From NCBI GenBank assembly GCA_035635775.1, contig DASQAL010000254.1, forward strand, positions 13,035 to 77,034: a DNA stretch of 64,000 nt, given 5' to 3'. Shown here piece after piece: positions 28,635 to 37,562 of the stretch. Positions within the stretch are counted from its first letter, which is position 1; each line of letters begins with the position of its first letter. A program made the translations under genes and the position numbers. Source of the DNA: Candidatus Acidiferrum sp. GTDB lineage: Bacteria > Methylomirabilota > Methylomirabilia > Rokubacteriales > CSP1-6. The notes under the pieces are model-generated. The model had not been told where the DNA came from, ran no database searches, and saw only the letters and a list, made by a program, of their open reading frames with translations.

Positions 28635-28793
28635 TCAGCGCGTGGCGCTGCGGCCGCGCCACTTGTCGATGGACTTCTTGGAGAAGAGCCACTTCCCTTC
28701 GTGCTCGACGGCCGGGATGAGCCGGTCGGCCGCCATCTGAGCCACCGCCTTCTCGTCCATGGCGAGGTACCGCGCAGCTTCCTTCACATCCAT
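28635..28793 (-). CDS. small helix-turn-helix DNA-binding protein (excisionase/MerR-like HTH_17 type), 52 aa; not in the supplied ORF track
   Basis: Reverse-strand reading ATG...TGA gives MDVKEAARYLAMDEKAVAQMAADRLIPAVEHEGKWLFSKKSIDKWRGRSATR; pattern matches excisionase-family HTH. Confidence 0.5.
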   Translation of the reverse strand: MDVKEAARYLAMDEKAVAQMAADRLIPAVEHEGKWLFSKKSIDKWRGRSATR

Positions 28794-28838
28794 CGTGTCC
28801 TTGGGCAGCACGTCGCTCTCGCCTCCTGTGGAGTGGGG

Positions 28839-29513
28839 TCAGTCCGCGGGCGCGTCCGCGGGGACGTCGGCCGCCTTCTTCAGTCGCTCGATCTCGGCTT
28901 CGAGCGCGTGGATCCGGTCCGCCATCTGCTCGAGCGTGCGGGCGAGCGGATCGGGCAGATCGGTCTGGTTGAGGTCGATCGCCCCGGTCACCCGCTCGCC
29001 GTTGCGGAATGTTATGCGACCGGGTACCCCGACGACAACACAGTTCTCCGGCACCTCGCGGACCACCACCGAGCCGGCGCCGATGCGGCTGCCCGCGCCG
29101 ATGGTGAACCCGCCGATCACCTTGGCGCCCGCGCCGATCATGACGTTGTCGCCGATGGTGGGGTGGCGTTTCTCCCGCTTGAGGCTGGTGCCGCCCAGGG
29201 TCACGCCCTGGAGGATGCTGACGTTCTCACCGACCTCGGCGGTCTCGCCGATCACGATGCCCATCCCGTGATCGATGAAGAGGCCCGGACCCAGGACGGC
29301 GGCCGGGTGGATCTCGATGCCGGTCAGGAAGCGCCCCACGTGCGACACCCAGCGGGCAGTGAGGTGCCAGCCGCCGCGCCAGAACCCGTGGGCGACGCGG
29401 TGGACCCAGATCGCGTGCACGCCCGGACTGCAGAGGACCACCTCGAGCGCCGACCGCGCCGCCGGGTCGCGCTCCAGCACCGTCCTCACATCCCGCCGCA
29501 TTCGCTCAAGCAT
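28839..29513 (-). CDS. cysE: serine O-acetyltransferase
   Basis: Hexapeptide-repeat LbH domain [27 protein letters not shown]..., N-terminal SATase helical domain. Confidence 0.88.
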
Positions 29514-29898
29514 GCCGATCGCTCCTCGTGTCCGCGCGGCTCAGCGCATCGCGCGCCGCCGCCCGCAGTCCCAGGGCCGCGACGTCCGCGGCGTGTCGCC
29601 GCGGCTCCGGCAGCCCGCCCACCGCCGCCTCGACCCGCGCCGCTGAGAGCTCCACCAGCGCTTCCAGCGCGCAGCCCGTCGCCACCTCGGTCGCGGCGCT
29701 CGCCGCCGCGATGGTCGGCCCGCACCCGTAGGCCTGGAACCGCGCCTCCACCACCTGCCCATCCCGCACGCGCAGGTGGAAGCGGACCAGGTCCATGCAG
29801 TCCTTGTACTCCCCTTCCCCCACTCCGTCCGGATTCCGCATGATGCCAGCGTTCCGCGGATTCCGGAAGTGATCGATGAGGACCGGGCTGTACTGCAT
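29506..29898 (-). CDS. NifU-like Fe-S cluster scaffold (IscU/NifU N-terminal-domain type, divergent)
   Basis: [10 protein letters not shown]-terminal motif, Cys at DCMD and YGCGPT; 130 aa. Confidence 0.7.
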
Positions 29899-29913: not shown

Positions 29914-31068
29914 CTAGGCCCGGACCGGCATGACACTCCGCAGCTTCGCCACCAGCGGCACGGTCGACTCGACCACGTAGTCGATGTCCTCGGCGGTAGT
30001 GCTCCGCCCGAGCGAATGCCGCACCGCGCCCATCGACCACTCCACCGGCACGCCCATCGCCACCAGTACGTAGGAGGGCTCCACGTTGCCGGAGGTGCAC
30101 GCCGAGCCCGCCGACACGCCGACGCCCTTCAGATCCAGACCGAGCACGATGGATTCCGACTCCACGTGCCGGAAACAGACATTGCAGGTGCCAGGCAGCC
30201 GCCGGGTCGGGTGCCCGTTCAGCTGTACGTCGGGCACCCGGCCGCGGATCCCTTCCCAGAGGCGATCGCGTAGCGCGGTCAGCCGGACGGCCTCGTCCGC
30301 CATGTCCCGGCCGCGGATCTCGACCGCCCGGCCGAGCCCGACGATGCCCGGCACGTTCTCGGTGCCCGCGCGACGGCGCCGCTCGTGCTCGCCGCCGTGC
30401 TGGACGGAGACCATCTTGGTGCCTTTCCGGATGTACAGCCCGGCCACGCCCTTGGGCCCGTAGATCTTGTGGGCGGAGAACGACAGCATGTCGATGTTGA
30501 AGGCGTCGAGATCGATGGGCGCCTTCCCGAAGGTCTGCACCGCGTCCACGTGGAACGGGATCCCGTGCTCGCGGGCGATCGCCCCGATCTCCCGCGCGGG
30601 CTGGATGGTCCCGATCTCGGAGTTGGCGTGCATGATCGAGATCAGGATGGTGTCGGGGCGGATGGCCTGGCGCACCGCCTCGGGATCCACGAGGCCGTCG
30701 CCGTCGACGTCCAGGTAGGTGGCCTCGAAACCCAGGGTCTCGAGGTTCTGCACCGCCCGCAGCACCGCGTGGTGCTCGATCTTCGACGTGATGAGGTGGC
30801 CGCGACGGCGCCCCATCGCCACGCCCTTGATCGCCATGTTGTCGGACTCGGTGCCGCCCGAGGTGAAGACGATCTCCTCCTTGCCCACCCGGAGGAAGTG
30901 CGCCACCTGCTCGCGCGCGGTCTCGAGCCCCTCGCGCGCCTCCCGGCCGAAGCCGTGCACGCTCGACGGATTGCCGAATCGCTCGCTCCAGTACGGCAGC
31001 ATCGCCTGGACCACCTCGGGATGTACCGGGGTGGAGGCGTTGTGATCGAGATAGACCTTCCGGTTCAT
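29914..31068 (-). CDS. cysteine desulfurase (NifS/IscS class I)
   Basis: LDHNASTP, FTSGGTESDN, PLP-lysine region SFSAHKIYGPKG, active-site SAGSACTSG. Confidence 0.9.
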   Translation of the reverse strand: MNRKVYLDHNASTPVHPEVVQAMLPYWSERFGNPSSVHGFGREAREGLETAREQVAHFLRVGKEEIVFTSGGTESDNMAIKGVAMGRRRGHLITSKIEHHAVLRAVQNLETLGFEATYLDVDGDGLVDPEAVRQAIRPDTILISIMHANSEIGTIQPAREIGAIAREHGIPFHVDAVQTFGKAPIDLDAFNIDMLSFSAHKIYGPKGVAGLYIRKGTKMVSVQHGGEHERRRRAGTENVPGIVGLGRAVEIRGRDMADEAVRLTALRDRLWEGIRGRVPDVQLNGHPTRRLPGTCNVCFRHVESESIVLGLDLKGVGVSAGSACTSGNVEPSYVLVAMGVPVEWSMGAVRHSLGRSTTAEDIDYVVESTVPLVAKLRSVMPVRA

Positions 31069-31086
31069 TGACGCTCCCCTTTCACG

Positions 31087-31422
31087 ATGTTACGCTGCGC
31101 CCGCATGGCCTCGGCCAAACGGAAGCTGGGTCTGATGCTCTCCACCACCCCCGACCACCCGAACCTCGAGACCGCCATCGGGCTGTCCCGGGCCGCGCTG
31201 GACGGTGGCGGCGACGTCTACCTGTACCTGATCGACGACGCGGTGGACGCGGTGGACGATGATCGTCTTCTCGCGCTCGCCGATCGCGGACTCAAGCTCT
31301 TCGTATGCGCCTACGGCTGCCAGAAGCGGCGACGGCCCCTGTCCGAGCGCGCCACCAACTGCGGCCTCGTGGTGCTCACCGACGTGATCAACGGGACCGA
31401 TCGCTTCATCGCGCTCAACTAG
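31087..31422 (+). CDS. DsrE/TusD-like sulfur-relay protein
   Basis: DsrE-fold pattern with conserved Cys (LFVCAYGC) and C-terminal GLVVLTDVI; true start may be the internal ATG at 31105. Confidence 0.65.
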   Translation: MLRCARMASAKRKLGLMLSTTPDHPNLETAIGLSRAALDGGGDVYLYLIDDAVDAVDDDRLLALADRGLKLFVCAYGCQKRRRPLSERATNCGLVVLTDVINGTDRFIALN

Positions 31423-31423
31423 C

Positions 31424-31780
31424 GTGGCGAGCCCCAGCCAGCCCACCCTCGTCCTGATCTCGGAGGACCCGCGCGTCTCCCACCGCGCCAACGAGGCGAT
31501 GCGGATCGCGCTCGGCATCGTGGCCGGCGAGAACCAGGTGCGCATCGTGCTGACCGGCCCCGCGGTGCACCTGCTCGATGACGAGACCGACGATCTGGTG
31601 GACGGCGACGACATCGCCAAGTTTCGCGCCGCGCTCCGGAAGCTGGGCGTGCCCTTCCACATCCAGGGCGCCCCGCCCACCCCGGCCGACTGGAACGGCG
31701 ACGGGCATCCGGTGGTTCCGGTCACCGCGGCCGAGGTCGCCGCGATGCTCCCCGGGGCCACGCGCTTTCTCGTGTTCTGA
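31424..31780 (+). CDS. DsrF/TusC-like sulfur-relay protein
   Basis: DsrE/F-fold pattern (TLVLISEDP..., VRIVLTGPAV); GTG start abutting previous stop; no Cys. Confidence 0.55.
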   Translation: MASPSQPTLVLISEDPRVSHRANEAMRIALGIVAGENQVRIVLTGPAVHLLDDETDDLVDGDDIAKFRAALRKLGVPFHIQGAPPTPADWNGDGHPVVPVTAAEVAAMLPGATRFLVF

Positions 31781-32010
31781 TGGCCAGCTTCCTGCACCTC
31801 GTGAAGCGCGACTCGGCCGCGCTCGCGGGCGCGGTGATCGAGTCCAATCTCCGGGAGGCCGACGCGCGGGTCACGGTGGTCCTGCTGGACGGCGCAGTCG
31901 CGCCGTCGCTGCCCGCGGGCGTCGCGGTGCGACGCCTCGGCCCGGGGGACCTGGACTACGCGGGCCTGCTCGATCTGGTCTTCGCTCACGATCACGTGAT
32001 CACCTGGTAG
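31780..32010 (+). CDS. DsrH/TusB-like protein
   Basis: 76 aa ending ...VFAHDHVITW like the TusB C-terminus; TGATG overlap with preceding gene; lacks Cys. Confidence 0.5.
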   Translation: MASFLHLVKRDSAALAGAVIESNLREADARVTVVLLDGAVAPSLPAGVAVRRLGPGDLDYAGLLDLVFAHDHVITW

Positions 32011-32011
32011 C

Positions 32012-32212
32012 CTAGCGATCCTGATATTCCTCGTGCCACTTCATCTGGATCCCTTCCAGGATGCCCTCGTTGGAGCCCTTCGCGTCGTCCGCGAACCCGG
32101 GCAGCGCCACCACCCACTTGTGCAGGTCGGTGAAGCGCACGGTGAGCGGGTCCACGTCCGGGTGCGCGTCCATCAGGGCCAGCGCGATGTCCTCGGCGTC
32201 TTTCCACTTCAC
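32012..32212 (-). CDS. iscX: Fe-S cluster assembly protein IscX
   Basis: MKWKDAEDIALALMDAHPDVDPL... matches IscX/YfhJ. Confidence 0.85.
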   Translation of the reverse strand: MKWKDAEDIALALMDAHPDVDPLTVRFTDLHKWVVALPGFADDAKGSNEGILEGIQMKWHEEYQDR

Positions 32213-32259
32213 GGTCGATCCTCCATATTCGCTCGCCTCGCCTTCGGCGGCGGCTCGCC

Positions 32260-32583
32260 CTACTTCGGAATCTCCACGACGACATCTCCCTTCACGATCG
32301 CCTGACAGCCCAGCCGCGAGTGCAGGGTCAGGCCCTCCGCGGTGTCCAGGCGGTCTTCCTCGTCCTGCTCCATGGTGGACAGGTTCTGCTCGCCCTCCCG
32401 CACGATGACGTGGCAGGTGGTGCAGGCACAGCTCCCCCCGCAGTTGTGCTCGAGGTGGATGTCGTTGGCCAGCGCGATGTCGAGGAGCGACCCCGGCCGG
32501 CCGTGATCGGCCAGCGGGTACTTGCTGTCGTCCACCTCGACGGTCCGATTGAGCGGCAGGAACGTGACCTTGTGAACCGCCAT
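32260..32583 (-). CDS. fdx: ISC-type [2Fe-2S] ferredoxin
   Basis: CGGSCACTTCHV ... LGCQ adrenodoxin-type Cys pattern. Confidence 0.9.
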   Translation of the reverse strand: MAVHKVTFLPLNRTVEVDDSKYPLADHGRPGSLLDIALANDIHLEHNCGGSCACTTCHVIVREGEQNLSTMEQDEEDRLDTAEGLTLHSRLGCQAIVKGDVVVEIPK

Positions 32584-32611
32584 CAGGAGCTCTCCAGGTT
32601 GTGCACCGCCA

Positions 32612-34415
<1,804 letters not shown>

Positions 34416-34438
<23 letters not shown>

Positions 34439-35012
34439 GTTGGTCCTCACGCTCCCCCAGCGCGTCACTCAGGTCGTCGATGACGGTGCGCAGGTAGGCC
34501 CGGGTCGCGAGCCGCTGCTTGAACCACTCGAGCAGCGGCCGACGATCGCCCCGCTCGTCCACCAGCCGATCCCACTCCGCCGTGCGGGCGATCAGCGCCG
34601 CCGCCTCGGCCGCGGAGCGCTCCTCGAGGCGGCGACGCTCCTCGCGGAGCCGCGTGCCGGCGTCTCCGCCGAGCCCTTCCGCCTTGGCCTCCTCGAGCGC
34701 CTCCTGCACTTCCATCATCTCTTCCAGGAGCTCCCGGGGCGCCTTCGGCTTGTCGGTGGCGCCCTCCCGGACCTCGCGACCCTCTTCCAGCGCGATCAGG
34801 TACTCCACGCGCGCGAGGGGCTCGCGCAGGGCACGATAGGCGCGGTTCACCAGAGCCGACTGGCCCAGGGCTTCCGCCTGGCGCTCGGCGTCCGCGCCCT
34901 GGTGGAAATCCGGATGGTGCTGCCGCGACAGCTCGTAGAACCGCCGCTGCAGGGCCTCCCCGTCCACCCCCAGCTTGCGGGGCAGCCCGAACACCGTGAA
35001 GTAATCGCTCAC
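34416..35012 (-). CDS. hscB: co-chaperone HscB (J-domain)
   Basis: J-domain with HPD tripeptide (QHHPDF) and HscB C-terminal helical domain. Confidence 0.85.
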
Positions 35013-35076
35013 GAGCGTTTCCTTAAAACAACAACGGGCCCGTCAGGGCCCGCGTTCGTGTCTTCCGGGCCGGGCC

Positions 35077-35403
35077 TCAGGCCGAGAACGATGTCCCGCA
35101 CCCGCAACTAGATTTCGCGGTGGGGTTGACGAAGGTGAACCCGCCCTGGAGCCCCTGCGTGACGTAGTCGAGCGTGATGCCGTTCAGGTACAGGTAGCTC
35201 TTCTTGTCGCACACGACCTGCACCCCGTCGATGTCGAACTTCTTGTCGTGGGGGCCGATCTCGTTGTCGAACTCGAGCTGGTAGGAAAGGCCCGAGCAGC
35301 CGCCCCCCTTGACCCCCACCCGCAGGTAGACGTTCCCCAGATTCTGGGTCTCCATGAGCTGCTTGACCTGCTTCACCGCGGTCTCGGTCAGCGCCAGTGC
35401 CAT
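35077..35403 (-). CDS. iscA: A-type Fe-S carrier IscA
   Basis: GGGCSG and C-terminal SCGCG Cys ligands. Confidence 0.9.
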   Translation of the reverse strand: MALALTETAVKQVKQLMETQNLGNVYLRVGVKGGGCSGLSYQLEFDNEIGPHDKKFDIDGVQVVCDKKSYLYLNGITLDYVTQGLQGGFTFVNPTAKSSCGCGTSFSA

Positions 35404-35424
35404 GATGCGTCGGTCTCCTTTACC

Positions 35425-35841
35425 TTAGGACGCGTCCCGGCCCGCCGGGGCTTCGCTCGCGCTCCACTTCTCCTTGTAGTCCTGGAGCGCGGCCTTGATC
35501 GCGTCCTCGGCGAGCACCGAGCAGTGGATCTTCACCGGCGGCAGCTTCAGCTCGTTCACGATGTCGGTGTTCTTGATCTTGGCCGCCTCGCCCACCGTGC
35601 GGCCCTTGAGCCACTCGGTGGCCAGGCTCGACGAGGCGATGGCGCTGCCGCAGCCGAACGTCTTGAACTTGGCGTCCTCGATGACGCCGGTCTCGACGTT
35701 GACCTTGATCTGCAGCTTCATCACGTCGCCGCACTCGGGTGCGCCCACCAAGCCCGTTCCCACTCCCGGGGTGTCCTTGGTGAAGGACCCCACGTTGCGC
35801 GGGTTGTTGTAGTGGTCGACTACCTTATCGCTGTAGGCCAT
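35425..35841 (-). CDS. iscU: Fe-S cluster scaffold IscU
   Basis: YNNPRNVG, GAPECGD, LPPVKIHCS motifs. Confidence 0.93.
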   Translation of the reverse strand: MAYSDKVVDHYNNPRNVGSFTKDTPGVGTGLVGAPECGDVMKLQIKVNVETGVIEDAKFKTFGCGSAIASSSLATEWLKGRTVGEAAKIKNTDIVNELKLPPVKIHCSVLAEDAIKAALQDYKEKWSASEAPAGRDAS

Positions 35842-35875
35842 GTCCGCACATCCTCCTGATCGCCCGAGGGCGTCG

Positions 35876-37102
35876 TTATTCCGCCTTCCAGTGGATCGAC
35901 TTCAGGTCAACGCCTTCCTTCGCGAGCTCGTAGAGCGGCGACATCTCCCGCAGCCGCTGGATGACCTCGACCGTCTTGCGCGCCACGAAGTCCACCTCTT
36001 CCTCGGTGGAGAATCGGTGCAGTCCGAACCGGATCGACGAGTGGGCCAGCTCGGAGTCCACTCCGAGCGCCGAGATCACGTAGGACGGCTCGAGCGTCGC
36101 CGAGGTGCACGCCGAGCCCGAGGCCAGCGCCGCCTCCTTGTTGAGCCCCATCAGCACCGACTCCCCCTCCACGTAGGCGAAGGAGATGTTCAGGTTGTGG
36201 GGCAGACGCCTCTCCGGGTGCCCGTTCACGTAGGCCTCATCCACCTTGGCGAGGATCTGCTCCTGGAGCCGATCACGGAGCGCGGCGAGCCGCTTACCCT
36301 CCTCGGCCATGACCTCGCGAGAGATCTCCGCCGCCTTCCCGAAACCGACCACCAGCGGCACCGGCACCGTGCCCGAGCGCATGCCCCGCTCGTGGCCGCC
36401 GCCGTCCACCATGGGCGCGATACGCACGCGCGGATTCTTCCGCCGCACGTAGAGCGCGCCGACGCCCTTGGGCCCGTACAGCATGTGGGCGGTGGCCGAC
36501 AGCAGGTCGACGCCCATGGCCTCGACGTCCACCGGGATCTTGCCCACCGCCTGGGTGGCGTCGGTGTGGAAGAGGATCCCCTTCTCCTTGGCCAGCTTGC
36601 CGAGCGCGGCCACCGGCTGGATCGTCCCGATCTCGTTGTTGGCGAACATGATCGAGATCAGGATGGTCTTGTCGGTCAGCGCGGCCCGGACCGCCTCGAC
36701 GTCCACCAGCCCGTCGCGGCCCACCGACACGTAGGTCACCTCGACACCCTGCCGCTCCAGCCGCTTGCAGACGTCGAGCGTGGCCCGCTGCTCGATCGTG
36801 GTGGTGACGATGTGGTTGCCCTTCTCCCGGTACATCTCGACGACGCCCTTGAGCGCCAGGTTGATCGCCTCGGTGCCGCCGGAGGTGAAGACGACCTCCT
36901 TCGGGTCCCGGGCCCCGATCAGCTTGGCGATCTGCTCACGGGCCACGTCCACTCCACCCTCGGCTTCCCAGCCGAAGGAATGGTTGCGGCTCGCCGGGTG
37001 ACCGAACTTCTCCGTGAAATAGGGGATCATCGCCTCGAGCACTCGGGGATCCACCGGGGTCGTGGACTGGCTGTCCATGAAGATCGGAAGCTTCAACGCC
37101 AT
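35876..37102 (-). CDS. iscS: cysteine desulfurase IscS
   Basis: FTSGGTEAINLA, SATAHMLYGPKGVGALY PLP-Lys, SSGSACTS active-site Cys loop. Confidence 0.93.
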   Translation of the reverse strand: MALKLPIFMDSQSTTPVDPRVLEAMIPYFTEKFGHPASRNHSFGWEAEGGVDVAREQIAKLIGARDPKEVVFTSGGTEAINLALKGVVEMYREKGNHIVTTTIEQRATLDVCKRLERQGVEVTYVSVGRDGLVDVEAVRAALTDKTILISIMFANNEIGTIQPVAALGKLAKEKGILFHTDATQAVGKIPVDVEAMGVDLLSATAHMLYGPKGVGALYVRRKNPRVRIAPMVDGGGHERGMRSGTVPVPLVVGFGKAAEISREVMAEEGKRLAALRDRLQEQILAKVDEAYVNGHPERRLPHNLNISFAYVEGESVLMGLNKEAALASGSACTSATLEPSYVISALGVDSELAHSSIRFGLHRFSTEEEVDFVARKTVEVIQRLREMSPLYELAKEGVDLKSIHWKAE

Positions 37103-37121
37103 GCCGTCTTTCTCCTCGGGT

Positions 37122-37562
37122 CTAATGAATGACCGCCAGCGGTGTGGCCGGGACGGTCGGCTCCGCCCCCAGCTCCGCGAGCGTCATGCTATCCAGTACG
37201 TGGCTGATGCTGGCCTGGATCTTCTGCACGGGTCCTCGCAGGTTGCAGCGCGCGAACTGCGGGCAATCGTCCCGCTCGCTCATGCAGCTCACCACGCTGA
37301 TCGGGCCCTCGAGCGCCCGGACGACCTGCCCGACCGTGATCTCCGCCGGGTCCCGGGTCAGCAGGTAGCCCCCCTTGGGGCCGTTGTGACTGGCGACCAG
37401 CTTCTTCTTCGCGAGGCGCTGGAGGATCTTGGCCAGCCGCTCGGGCGGGATGTGAAACTCCTCCGCGATCCGCTTCGCGCTCACCGCGCCGTCGTCGCCG
37501 TGCGAGGCGATGAAGTGCACGGCCATGAGCCCGTAGTCCGCTCGCTTCGTGAATCTCAGCAA
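37122..37562 (-). CDS. iscR: Rrf2-family Fe-S regulator IscR
   Basis: N-terminal wHTH (RADYGLMAVHFIA) and three-Cys cluster ligands C-x6-C-x5-C. Confidence 0.88.
   Translation of the reverse strand: MLRFTKRADYGLMAVHFIASHGDDGAVSAKRIAEEFHIPPERLAKILQRLAKKKLVASHNGPKGGYLLTRDPAEITVGQVVRALEGPISVVSCMSERDDCPQFARCNLRGPVQKIQASISHVLDSMTLAELGAEPTVPATPLAVIH

Follow-up and report, generated by a model that had tools for sequence, protein, structure and literature searches.

What are three small genes resembling a sulfur relay doing in the middle of a biogenesis locus for iron-sulfur (Fe-S) clusters? The question arises from a 64,000-nucleotide stretch of DNA from Candidatus Acidiferrum sp. (Methylomirabilota; Rokubacteriales), taken from contig DASQAL010000254.1 of assembly GCA_035635775.1 (positions 13,035 to 77,034) and referred to below, at its full length, as the window. 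The DNA is rich in G+C, and the names borne by near-identical proteins and contigs point to Rokubacteria. Three plus-strand genes, here called A (31105..31422), B (31424..31780), and C (31780..32010), are wedged between nifS and iscX, divergent from the former and convergent on the latter. Their predicted products are a DsrE/TusD-type subunit of 105 amino acids (aa; 11.3 kDa, ATG start), a cysteine-free DsrE-fold paralogue of 118 aa in the DsrF/TusC position (12.5 kDa, GTG start), and a truncated, cysteine-free DsrH/TusB-family subunit of 76 aa (8.0 kDa).

Profile comparisons support the placement of the trio as a compact, divergent member of the DsrEFH/TusBCD superfamily. As to its role, we propose with moderate confidence that it is a carrier of the DsrEFH/TusBCD type acting as a housekeeping, branch-point acceptor of sulfur. 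We think that it is neither an obligatory step of Fe-S assembly nor part of dissimilatory sulfur oxidation.

Three genes and their family

A, B, and C are genuine genes. A collection of 5.8 billion proteins holds about 1300 homologues of A, about 1300 of B, and 237 of C, and in some 80 species-level loci the third codon positions, counted in the frame of the gene concerned, are where nucleotides vary most (entropy at codon positions 1/2/3 of 0.46/0.34/1.01 for A, 0.51/0.44/0.98 for B, and 0.85/0.71/1.13 for C). AlphaFold2 monomer models of A and C reached pLDDT values of 91.6 and 90.9. A and B meet at TAG-c-GTG (31420-31426) and B and C at TGATG (31778-31782), where the start of C overlaps the stop of B by 1 nt, an overlap retained in 77 of 83 loci. 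An earlier, sequence-only reading of this DNA had described three overlapping plus-strand genes with these two junctions, all of which are seen in the window sequence. It had also begun the first gene at 31087; the real start is the ATG at 31105, since most homologues are 105 aa long and the ATG at 31087 sits within the spacer of the promoter described below.

A 301-aa open reading frame (ORF) runs antisense to the whole trio (31090-31995, minus strand), and a similar full-length antisense ORF covers iscS (35840-37132, plus strand). Could the trio be an annotation artefact and the 301-aa frame the real gene? As many as 80 of 83 loci keep the frame open over 90% or more of the region, and the G+C content of the frame at third codon positions (GC3) is 0.82. 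The codon-position signal nevertheless rules it out: variation tracks the three plus-strand frames, with A and C sharing a frame that differs from that of B, and the plus-strand proteins possess folds, Pfam relatives, and fusion forms. Full-length antisense frames, such as that over iscS, are expected at a GC3 of about 90%. We regard the 301-aa frame as a by-product of this composition and give the artefact practically no chance.

The assignment of A to the DsrE fold draws on structure and profiles together. A Foldseek search of the PDB with the A model returned DsrE of A. vinosum as the best match (2hy5_A; E of 4.6e-6, TM score of 0.82) and YchN as the second; A is about 21% identical to DsrE. 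Searched against the PDB, the A-family profile placed DsrE (3e-5) and TusD (1.5e-4) at the top, and an hhalign comparison with E. coli TusD gave 94% probability and an E value of 8.5e-8 over 97 columns. In both PDB matches and in the hhalign alignment, Cys68 of A falls on Cys78, so that the cysteine is aligned with the active residue of DsrE/TusD. In the model, a strand at residues 64 to 68 is followed by a helix at residues 69 to 74, which Cys68 opens. On this evidence A is best described as a DsrE-fold subunit with a cysteine at the catalytic position of DsrE/TusD.

A has three cysteines: Cys68 (31306-31308) and Cys72 (31318-31320), both within the motif LFVCAYGC, and Cys86 (31360-31362). 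The motif had been reported from the first gene alone, with no cysteine in the other two; B and C are indeed cysteine-free, and Cys86 comes in addition. Cys68 is kept in 81 of 84 A-family representatives and is the sole cysteine conserved family-wide; Cys72 is replaced by alanine in 53 of the 84, and Cys86 is variable. In Rokubacteria all three are invariant or nearly so, and Nitrospira has them too, Cys72 and Cys86 being lineage-specific. Cys68 and Cys72 form a CxxxC pair spaced one helical turn apart.

The A family is small: when 1.84 billion cluster representatives were searched exhaustively with a profile, only 262 clusters came up at an E value of 1e-3 or lower. A from the window falls below the cut-off of the Pfam DsrE model, PF02635 (17.4 to 17.6 bits, cut-off 22.7), which is matched by 55 of 60 diverse A-family representatives and, at 36.6 to 36.8 bits over the full length, by the Nitrospirota orthologues. 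B from the window comes just below the same cut-off (21.1 bits). Many of its homologues carry PF02635, and the B orthologue of the Nitrospirota locus L164 matches it with 38.6 bits over positions 2 to 116 of 116. With its cysteine-free sequence and signature motif DPxxSxRxxEAxRIAxG, and with a B profile that matches the A family in hhalign (91% probability, E of 1e-6), B is assigned as a DsrE-fold paralogue of A.

Direct searches with C from the window, whether by sequence or by structure, gave no significant match. Neither this protein nor 31 other Rokubacteria C proteins matched PF04077, and the Foldseek match to DsrH was weak (rank 26, E of 0.09). A broader C profile had no match in the PDB or Pfam and none of significance to TusB; comparison with the B family was not significant, and that with the A family (E of 0.0055) is suggestive at most. 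The Nitrospirota orthologues supply the link. In L164, where an A-B-C trio again converges on iscX, the C orthologue of 93 aa scores 32.6 bits on Pfam DsrH (cut-off 24.4) and 39.9 bits on TIGR03011, and the syntenic orthologue in locus L152 scores 29.0 bits on Pfam DsrH against the same cut-off. The Rokubacteria C profile aligns with the L164 protein over its full length (97.8% probability, E of 9e-13). By transitivity through this orthologue, C is assigned as a truncated member of the DsrH/TusB family. In the alignment with L164, Rokubacteria C is about 17 residues shorter, and the 'EDLxxRGL' helix typical of DsrH/TusB is gone; the AlphaFold2 model has the topology beta-alpha-beta-beta-alpha-beta. 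No cysteine is conserved across the C family. The earlier remark that DsrH/TusB normally carries a cysteine holds for A. vinosum DsrH (Cys20) and fails for E. coli TusB, which has none.

Taken as a set, the proteins could be placed only with broad profiles. Nothing significant emerged from the PDB or from E. coli TusB, TusC, and TusD with profiles restricted to homologues of 73% identity or more; the informative ones were built from representatives of 50% clusters together with fusion domains. A and B from the window matched no NCBIfam TusD or TusC model, and C reached an E value of 0.08 on TIGR03011. Among the Nitrospirota orthologues, the best NCBIfam match of B is TusC and that of C is TusB/DsrH; A matches the TusD models weakly (E of 1e-3) and scores better on the TusB model. 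Along the gene order A-B-C, the orthologues match the models for TusD, TusC, and TusB/DsrH in turn. The highest orthologue scores, each set against its equivalog cut-off, were 19 against 89 bits for TusD (TIGR03012), 15.8 against 94 for TusC (TIGR03010), and 39.9 against 49.2 for TusB/DsrH (TIGR03011). The E-F-H order proposed at the outset, checked with hidden Markov models, holds through family profiles and Nitrospirota orthologues, not directly on the window proteins. Subunit assignment by shuffled pairwise global alignment, in which A was best against TusB, was dropped as too noisy.

The three subunits, with a combined mass of 31.8 kDa, may form a heterotrimer of about 32 kDa that could stack to a hexamer. 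Physical association is suggested by A-B fusions in other lineages, by the retained B/C overlap, and by a mass near that of the type II DsrEFH heterotrimer discussed below. About 20 of 83 full-length A-family representatives are some 190 to 270 aa long instead of about 105, and in 12 of these long forms the C-terminal extension was confirmed as a B domain.

The locus and its relatives

The genes on either side had been read as a nifS-nifU-cysE cluster and a full isc set, and ORFs, Pfam and NCBIfam matches, and synteny bear this out. The minus-strand nifS (29914..31068) encodes a NifS-type class I cysteine desulfurase (TIGR03402 FeS_nifS, 521.8 bits; Pfam Aminotran_5, E of 1e-85). Downstream of it, as judged by Pfam and synteny, lie nifU (29506-29898), encoding a scaffold that consists of the N domain only, cysE (28839-29513), encoding serine acetyltransferase, and a gene for a small HTH_17 protein (28635-28811), all on the minus strand. 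On the other side is a complete minus-strand isc operon, iscR-iscS-iscU-iscA-hscB-hscA-fdx-iscX (32012..37562), identified from its ORFs and from the Pfam matches of the orthologous genes (Rrf2, Aminotran_5, NifU_N, Fe-S_biosyn, DnaJ, HSP70, Fer2, and Fe-S_assembly). IscS scores 614 bits on NF010611. A single nucleotide separates the stop codon of C from that of iscX. The longest hscA ORF (618 aa) overlaps hscB by 53 nt (34416-34468). Its orthologues are annotated with 608 aa, which probably puts the genuine hscA start some 10 codons downstream.

The whole clade shares this arrangement. In a scan of GTDB genomes, the HTH-cysE-nifU-nifS block, the divergent A-B-C trio, and the convergent iscX-to-iscR operon were found in this order in all 80 species-level Rokubacteria loci, with nifS syntenic in every locus extending that far. 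Identities to the window proteins ranged from 63 to 95% for A, 59 to 91% for B, and 30 to 93% for C. The same arrangement occurs in most of 80 loci from a metagenome scan, which were mainly from Rokubacteria with some from Nitrospirota. The scan of GTDB genome contigs used very specific peptides, which recover Rokubacteria-type loci only and carry no information on wider distribution. The trio had been described as inserted between the two operons; as a recent event this is not supported, since the arrangement is fixed throughout Rokubacteria. Nine contigs with full Rokubacteria synteny and B proteins 63 to 91% identical to that of the window (L008, L010, L020, L021, L022, L034, L054, L055, and L072) bear names of Limnocylindria, Nitrosotalea, Nitrosocosmicus, Verrucomicrobiia, Deferrimicrobiaceae, Dormiibacterota, or Binatia. 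The unrelated names probably reflect mis-binning in sets of metagenome-assembled genomes (MAGs).

Trio arrangements outside Rokubacteria were assigned to Nitrospirota through named proteins, and their neighbours differ. In Nitrospira sp. MAGs, the trio is divergent from a hisS-like gene, serA, and a gene for a class V aminotransferase, and it converges on an operon running from iscX to iscS. In nitrite-oxidising Nitrospira and other Nitrospirales (L160 2975-9815, L115, and L174), it stands between hisS and dnaA on the same strand, with thyX divergent from hisS and dnaN following dnaA. Further loci have the trio after a methyltransferase gene and before rpsA and tyrS. In two loci (L093 1018-7724 and L094), an A-B pair directly follows a rhodanese gene in an Fe-S-type cluster, the order after a sigma54 activator being NifU_N, a 76-aa protein, Fer4, a ParA/Mrp-like protein, Rieske, a NuoB-like protein (Oxidored_q6), HesB/IscA, rhodanese, and A-B. 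The set may be devoted to Fe-S maturation, with a DsrE-like pair as a part of it. Among distant relatives, one locus (L182 50-3298) encodes an A-like protein, DsrE, a cysteine-synthase-like PALP enzyme, a DsrH-like protein, TusA, a NIL domain, and Rrf2, and another (L184 589-2888) encodes DsrE, DsrE, DsrH, TusA, a GcvH-like lipoate-binding protein, and an A-like protein, and resembles sHdr/LbpA sulfur-oxidation clusters.

Two loci with A-B fusions of 228 and 257 aa (L088 4452-8687 and L090 6288-8774) have the fusion gene after genes for a DksA-like protein and S18 and L28 paralogues, together with genes for zinc uptake or for an ArsP/DUF1980 permease. The cluster resembles a zinc-limitation (Zur) regulon. 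In L090, mnmG (GIDA) lies about 5 kb from the fusion gene. Such neighbours raise the question of whether the proteins carry sulfur at all. The trio might be a DsrE-fold assembly whose task is thiol redox or detoxification, on the lines proposed for DsrE4, or one that responds to metal limitation; some pipelines name B a 'predicted peroxiredoxin', and many DsrE-fold proteins, such as YchN and DsrE5, have no known function. The residue conserved across the family is nevertheless the persulfide-bearing cysteine of all characterised DsrE-type proteins, and the specific models matched by the three subunits are those of TusD, TusC, and TusB, so that we consider a role outside sulfur transfer very improbable. 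The single-subunit proteins YchN, DsrE2, DsrE3A/B/C, DsrE4, and DsrE5 share with A the DsrE fold and one conserved cysteine; they are homo-oligomers, whereas the three paralogous subunits described here are always encoded together or with A and B fused.

Promoter and transcription

Cross-species alignment of the intergenic region between nifS and A revealed a conserved promoter of the sigma70 type on the plus strand. Its -35 element, TTGACG (31068..31073), overlaps the nifS start codon by one base, and its -10 element, TACGCT (31091..31096), lies after a spacer of 17 nt and 8 nt before the ATG of A at 31105. The pattern TTG[AC][CT]N, N17/18, TA[ACG][CG][CG]T, N6-10, and an in-frame ATG is present in 75 of 76 species-level Rokubacteria loci; the spacer measures 17 nt in 69 of the 75, and 73 have 8 to 10 nt between the -10 element and the ATG. 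A generic promoter and terminator scan did not pick up this promoter, the -10 hexamer of which matches only three of six consensus bases. From this promoter A, B, and C are predicted to be co-transcribed. Because the -10 element lies only 8 nt upstream of the ATG, the mRNA is predicted to be leaderless or nearly so.

The arrangement has a consequence for nifS. Its Shine-Dalgarno sequence, GGGGAG, lies on the opposite strand of the trio promoter spacer, and therefore the 5' untranslated region of nifS should either begin inside, and antisense to, the trio or be supplied by read-through from iscX. Synonymous-site conservation gave no sign of a minus-strand nifS promoter embedded in the trio, the only dips being those of codon degeneracy. 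The generic scan found no terminator-like site in 30600-32700 and thus none between iscX and nifS, and only the plus-strand trio (31069-32011) separates the minus-strand isc operon from the minus-strand nifS-nifU-cysE operon. Transcription reading through from iscX to nifS would run antisense to the trio. As part of a broader reading that we regard as doubtful, a leaderless trio mRNA antisense to isc-to-nifS read-through could make expression of the trio and that of nifS-nifU-cysE mutually exclusive.

Donors, sinks, and known systems

Sulfur passes straight from IscS to IscU and from NifS to NifU, and extra carriers, such as TusA and ThiI, divert it to other pathways. We favor a branch-point role because the scaffolds are loaded directly in this way and extra carriers serve to divert sulfur, and because the module lies beside translation and replication genes in nitrite oxidisers. 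In the proposed mechanism, Cys68 of A would take up sulfane sulfur as a persulfide and pass it on, while the cysteine-free B and C would act as scaffold and docking surface. The donor would be one or both of the neighbouring class I desulfurases, IscS and the NifS-like enzyme, and synteny makes a coupling of the trio to them plausible. Sulfur would thereby be diverted from the desulfurases to destinations outside Fe-S clusters, among which thiolation of tRNA or of a cofactor, as by TusA-TusBCD in E. coli, is the most plausible. The trio would be transcribed from its own sigma70-type promoter, with B and C translationally coupled. We infer the formation of a complex, the persulfide chemistry of Cys68, the donor, and the acceptor from the family assignment and the genomic setting.

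The housekeeping character of the module is suggested by its positions in Nitrospirota: one lineage has it next to isc, and the nitrite-oxidising Nitrospira, which, to our knowledge, have no dsr-type sulfur metabolism, have it between hisS and dnaA. Neighbours elsewhere (rpsA and tyrS, the S18 and L28 paralogues, and mnmG) point the same way, as does the need for a cysteine in the D/E subunit alone, a feature shared with E. coli TusBCD.

Several observations weigh against a branch-point carrier. The evidence for the donor is gene order only, and linkage to Fe-S assembly genes in three independent contexts (Rokubacteria, one Nitrospirota lineage, and the one cluster that also holds rhodanese) fits a role inside Fe-S assembly equally well. 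The window's own A, B, and C all score below Pfam thresholds, and no protein of the trio, and no orthologue, reaches the NCBIfam equivalog cut-offs for TusD, TusC, or TusB. The relay is also without a visible partner: TusA, TusE/DsrC, MnmA, and rhodanese were found neither in the 64-kb window (phmmer with E. coli and metagenomic queries), which bears out the earlier remark that tusA, tusE, and dsrC are not nearby, nor, across about 170 loci of Rokubacteria and Nitrospirota, in the 6 to 10 kb on either side of the trio, in a search that recovered its positive controls. We know of TusBCD-dependent tRNA thiolation only from Gammaproteobacteria. Many bacteria feed MnmA straight from the desulfurase.

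The main rival places the trio inside Fe-S assembly, as a SufE/SufU-like shuttle or buffer that would pass persulfide sulfur from NifS, IscS, or both to NifU or IscU; in one variant, the CxxxC pair and Cys86 of Rokubacteria and Nitrospira might hold extra sulfur or even a cluster. We judge this possible, if rather unlikely. The fixed position between nifS-nifU-cysE and isc in every Rokubacteria locus speaks for it, as do the trio at the isc end in one Nitrospirota lineage, the A-B pair within the NifU_N/Fer4/Mrp-like/HesB/rhodanese cluster, and the near invariance of Cys68, Cys72, and Cys86 in Rokubacteria together with their presence in Nitrospira. Against it, Cys72 and Cys86 are not conserved family-wide, alanine being the more common residue at the former, and neither the nitrite-oxidising Nitrospira loci nor the fused versions have Fe-S neighbours. 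The trio also lies on the strand opposite both Fe-S operons with a promoter of its own, and direct transfer from class I desulfurases to their scaffolds is established. We retain the branch-point acceptor as the preferred role.

Among the families detectable by sequence, the closest are TusBCD and canonical DsrEFH. Like E. coli TusBCD (PDB 2D1P), the trio has the order D-C-B, overlapping genes, an aligned D-type cysteine (Cys78 there and Cys68 here), a cysteine-free B-type subunit, and a housekeeping, nondissimilatory setting close to translation genes. Unlike TusBCD, its subunits measure 105, 118, and 76 aa instead of 128, 119, and 95, C has no 'EDLxARGL' helix, scores fall far under the equivalog cut-offs, no tusA, tusE, or mnmA is in the neighbourhood, and the hosts are Methylomirabilota and Nitrospirota, not Gammaproteobacteria. 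Canonical, or type I, DsrEFH of A. vinosum (PDB 2HY5) provides the best structural and profile match of A and shares the E/F/H architecture and the Cys78-type site; the trio differs in lying outside a dsr operon with no DsrC nearby, in the missing Cys20 of DsrH, and in subunits that are about 20% shorter.

By size and cysteine position, the closest known system is DsrEFH type II (DsrE-like/Chp1/Chp2 of the YTD cluster; Plum-Jensen et al., ISME J 2026), as judged from its published description. Type II is found in cable bacteria and other Desulfobacterota (PMC13293266; PMC13047784). It is a 33-kDa heterotrimer in which Cys67 of DsrE is the proven sulfur-binding residue and Cys20 of DsrH is absent; it is syntenic with tusA and yeeE/yedE and occurs in 985 genomes from 20 phyla, 74% of them with reductive dsrAB, and all 46 cultured carriers are sulfate reducers or sulfur disproportionators (PMC13293266). 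The trio resembles it in having three small subunits, co-transcribed in type II and predicted to be so here, with a summed mass of 31.8 kDa against about 33 kDa for the heterotrimer, one active or presumed active cysteine in the E subunit (position 67 there and 68 here), no DsrH Cys20, and so little identity to canonical DsrEFH that the F and H subunits escape standard annotation. Neighbours and the physiology of the hosts set the two apart: type II occurs mainly with reductive dsrAB in Desulfobacterota and Nitrospirota, whereas the trio has no tusA, yeeE, or dsrAB nearby and lies in an Fe-S locus in Rokubacteria and beside hisS and dnaA in Nitrospira. The cable-bacterial F and H proteins were reported not to align with the canonical ones (PMC13047784), whereas orthologues of B and C still match the TusC and DsrH/TusB models. 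A type II motif derived from mutagenesis primers (PMC13293266) was left unused because its reading frame was ambiguous; neither candidate motif occurs in any representative.

These likenesses, in E/F/H architecture, a Cys67/68-type site, and a heterotrimer of about 32 kDa, also bear on whether the trio could be a dissimilatory DsrEFH, of type I or II, that feeds DsrC and DsrAB in sulfur oxidation or disproportionation. Some Rokubacteria do have dsrAB and dsrEFH, inside dsr operons and clustering with those of sulfur oxidisers (PMC6018805). Those dsrEFH genes are, by their location and clustering, a different set from the trio, and neither the window nor about 170 related loci contain tusA, yeeE, or any dsr gene, a setting opposite to the tusA/yeeE synteny and frequent dsrAB of type II. 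Methylomirabilota are not mentioned among the type II carriers in PMC13293266 or its supplements. With Cys20 of DsrH absent and the trio present in nitrite-oxidising Nitrospira, we hold a dissimilatory role to be very unlikely.

A more specific proposal, which we regard as doubtful, is that the trio represents a third, nondissimilatory type of DsrEFH-like complex of Methylomirabilota and Nitrospirota, a TusA-independent, direct persulfide acceptor of class I desulfurases. It would then be either a SufE-like transpersulfidase for the ISC and NIF systems or the entry to a new thiolation pathway.

The practical value of these findings is modest, and sequence analysis alone resolves no open question. 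What is new is a compact, TusA-unlinked, nondissimilatory E/F/H trio that has a fixed place in the Rokubacteria Fe-S locus and is also found in Nitrospirota. Surveys in which dsrEFH serves to mark sulfur oxidation (PMC6018805; PMC13293266) could miscount such look-alike trios. The previously known settings of DsrE-type carriers are the tRNA thiolation of Gammaproteobacteria and dissimilatory sulfur oxidation; to these is added an E/F/H trio fixed in the Fe-S biogenesis locus of a whole phylum-level soil clade and in an apparently housekeeping position in nitrite-oxidising Nitrospira. If its sulfur comes from IscS or NifS, the trio would reveal how cysteine-derived sulfur is split between Fe-S clusters and other thiolated products in abundant bacteria that are hard to culture.

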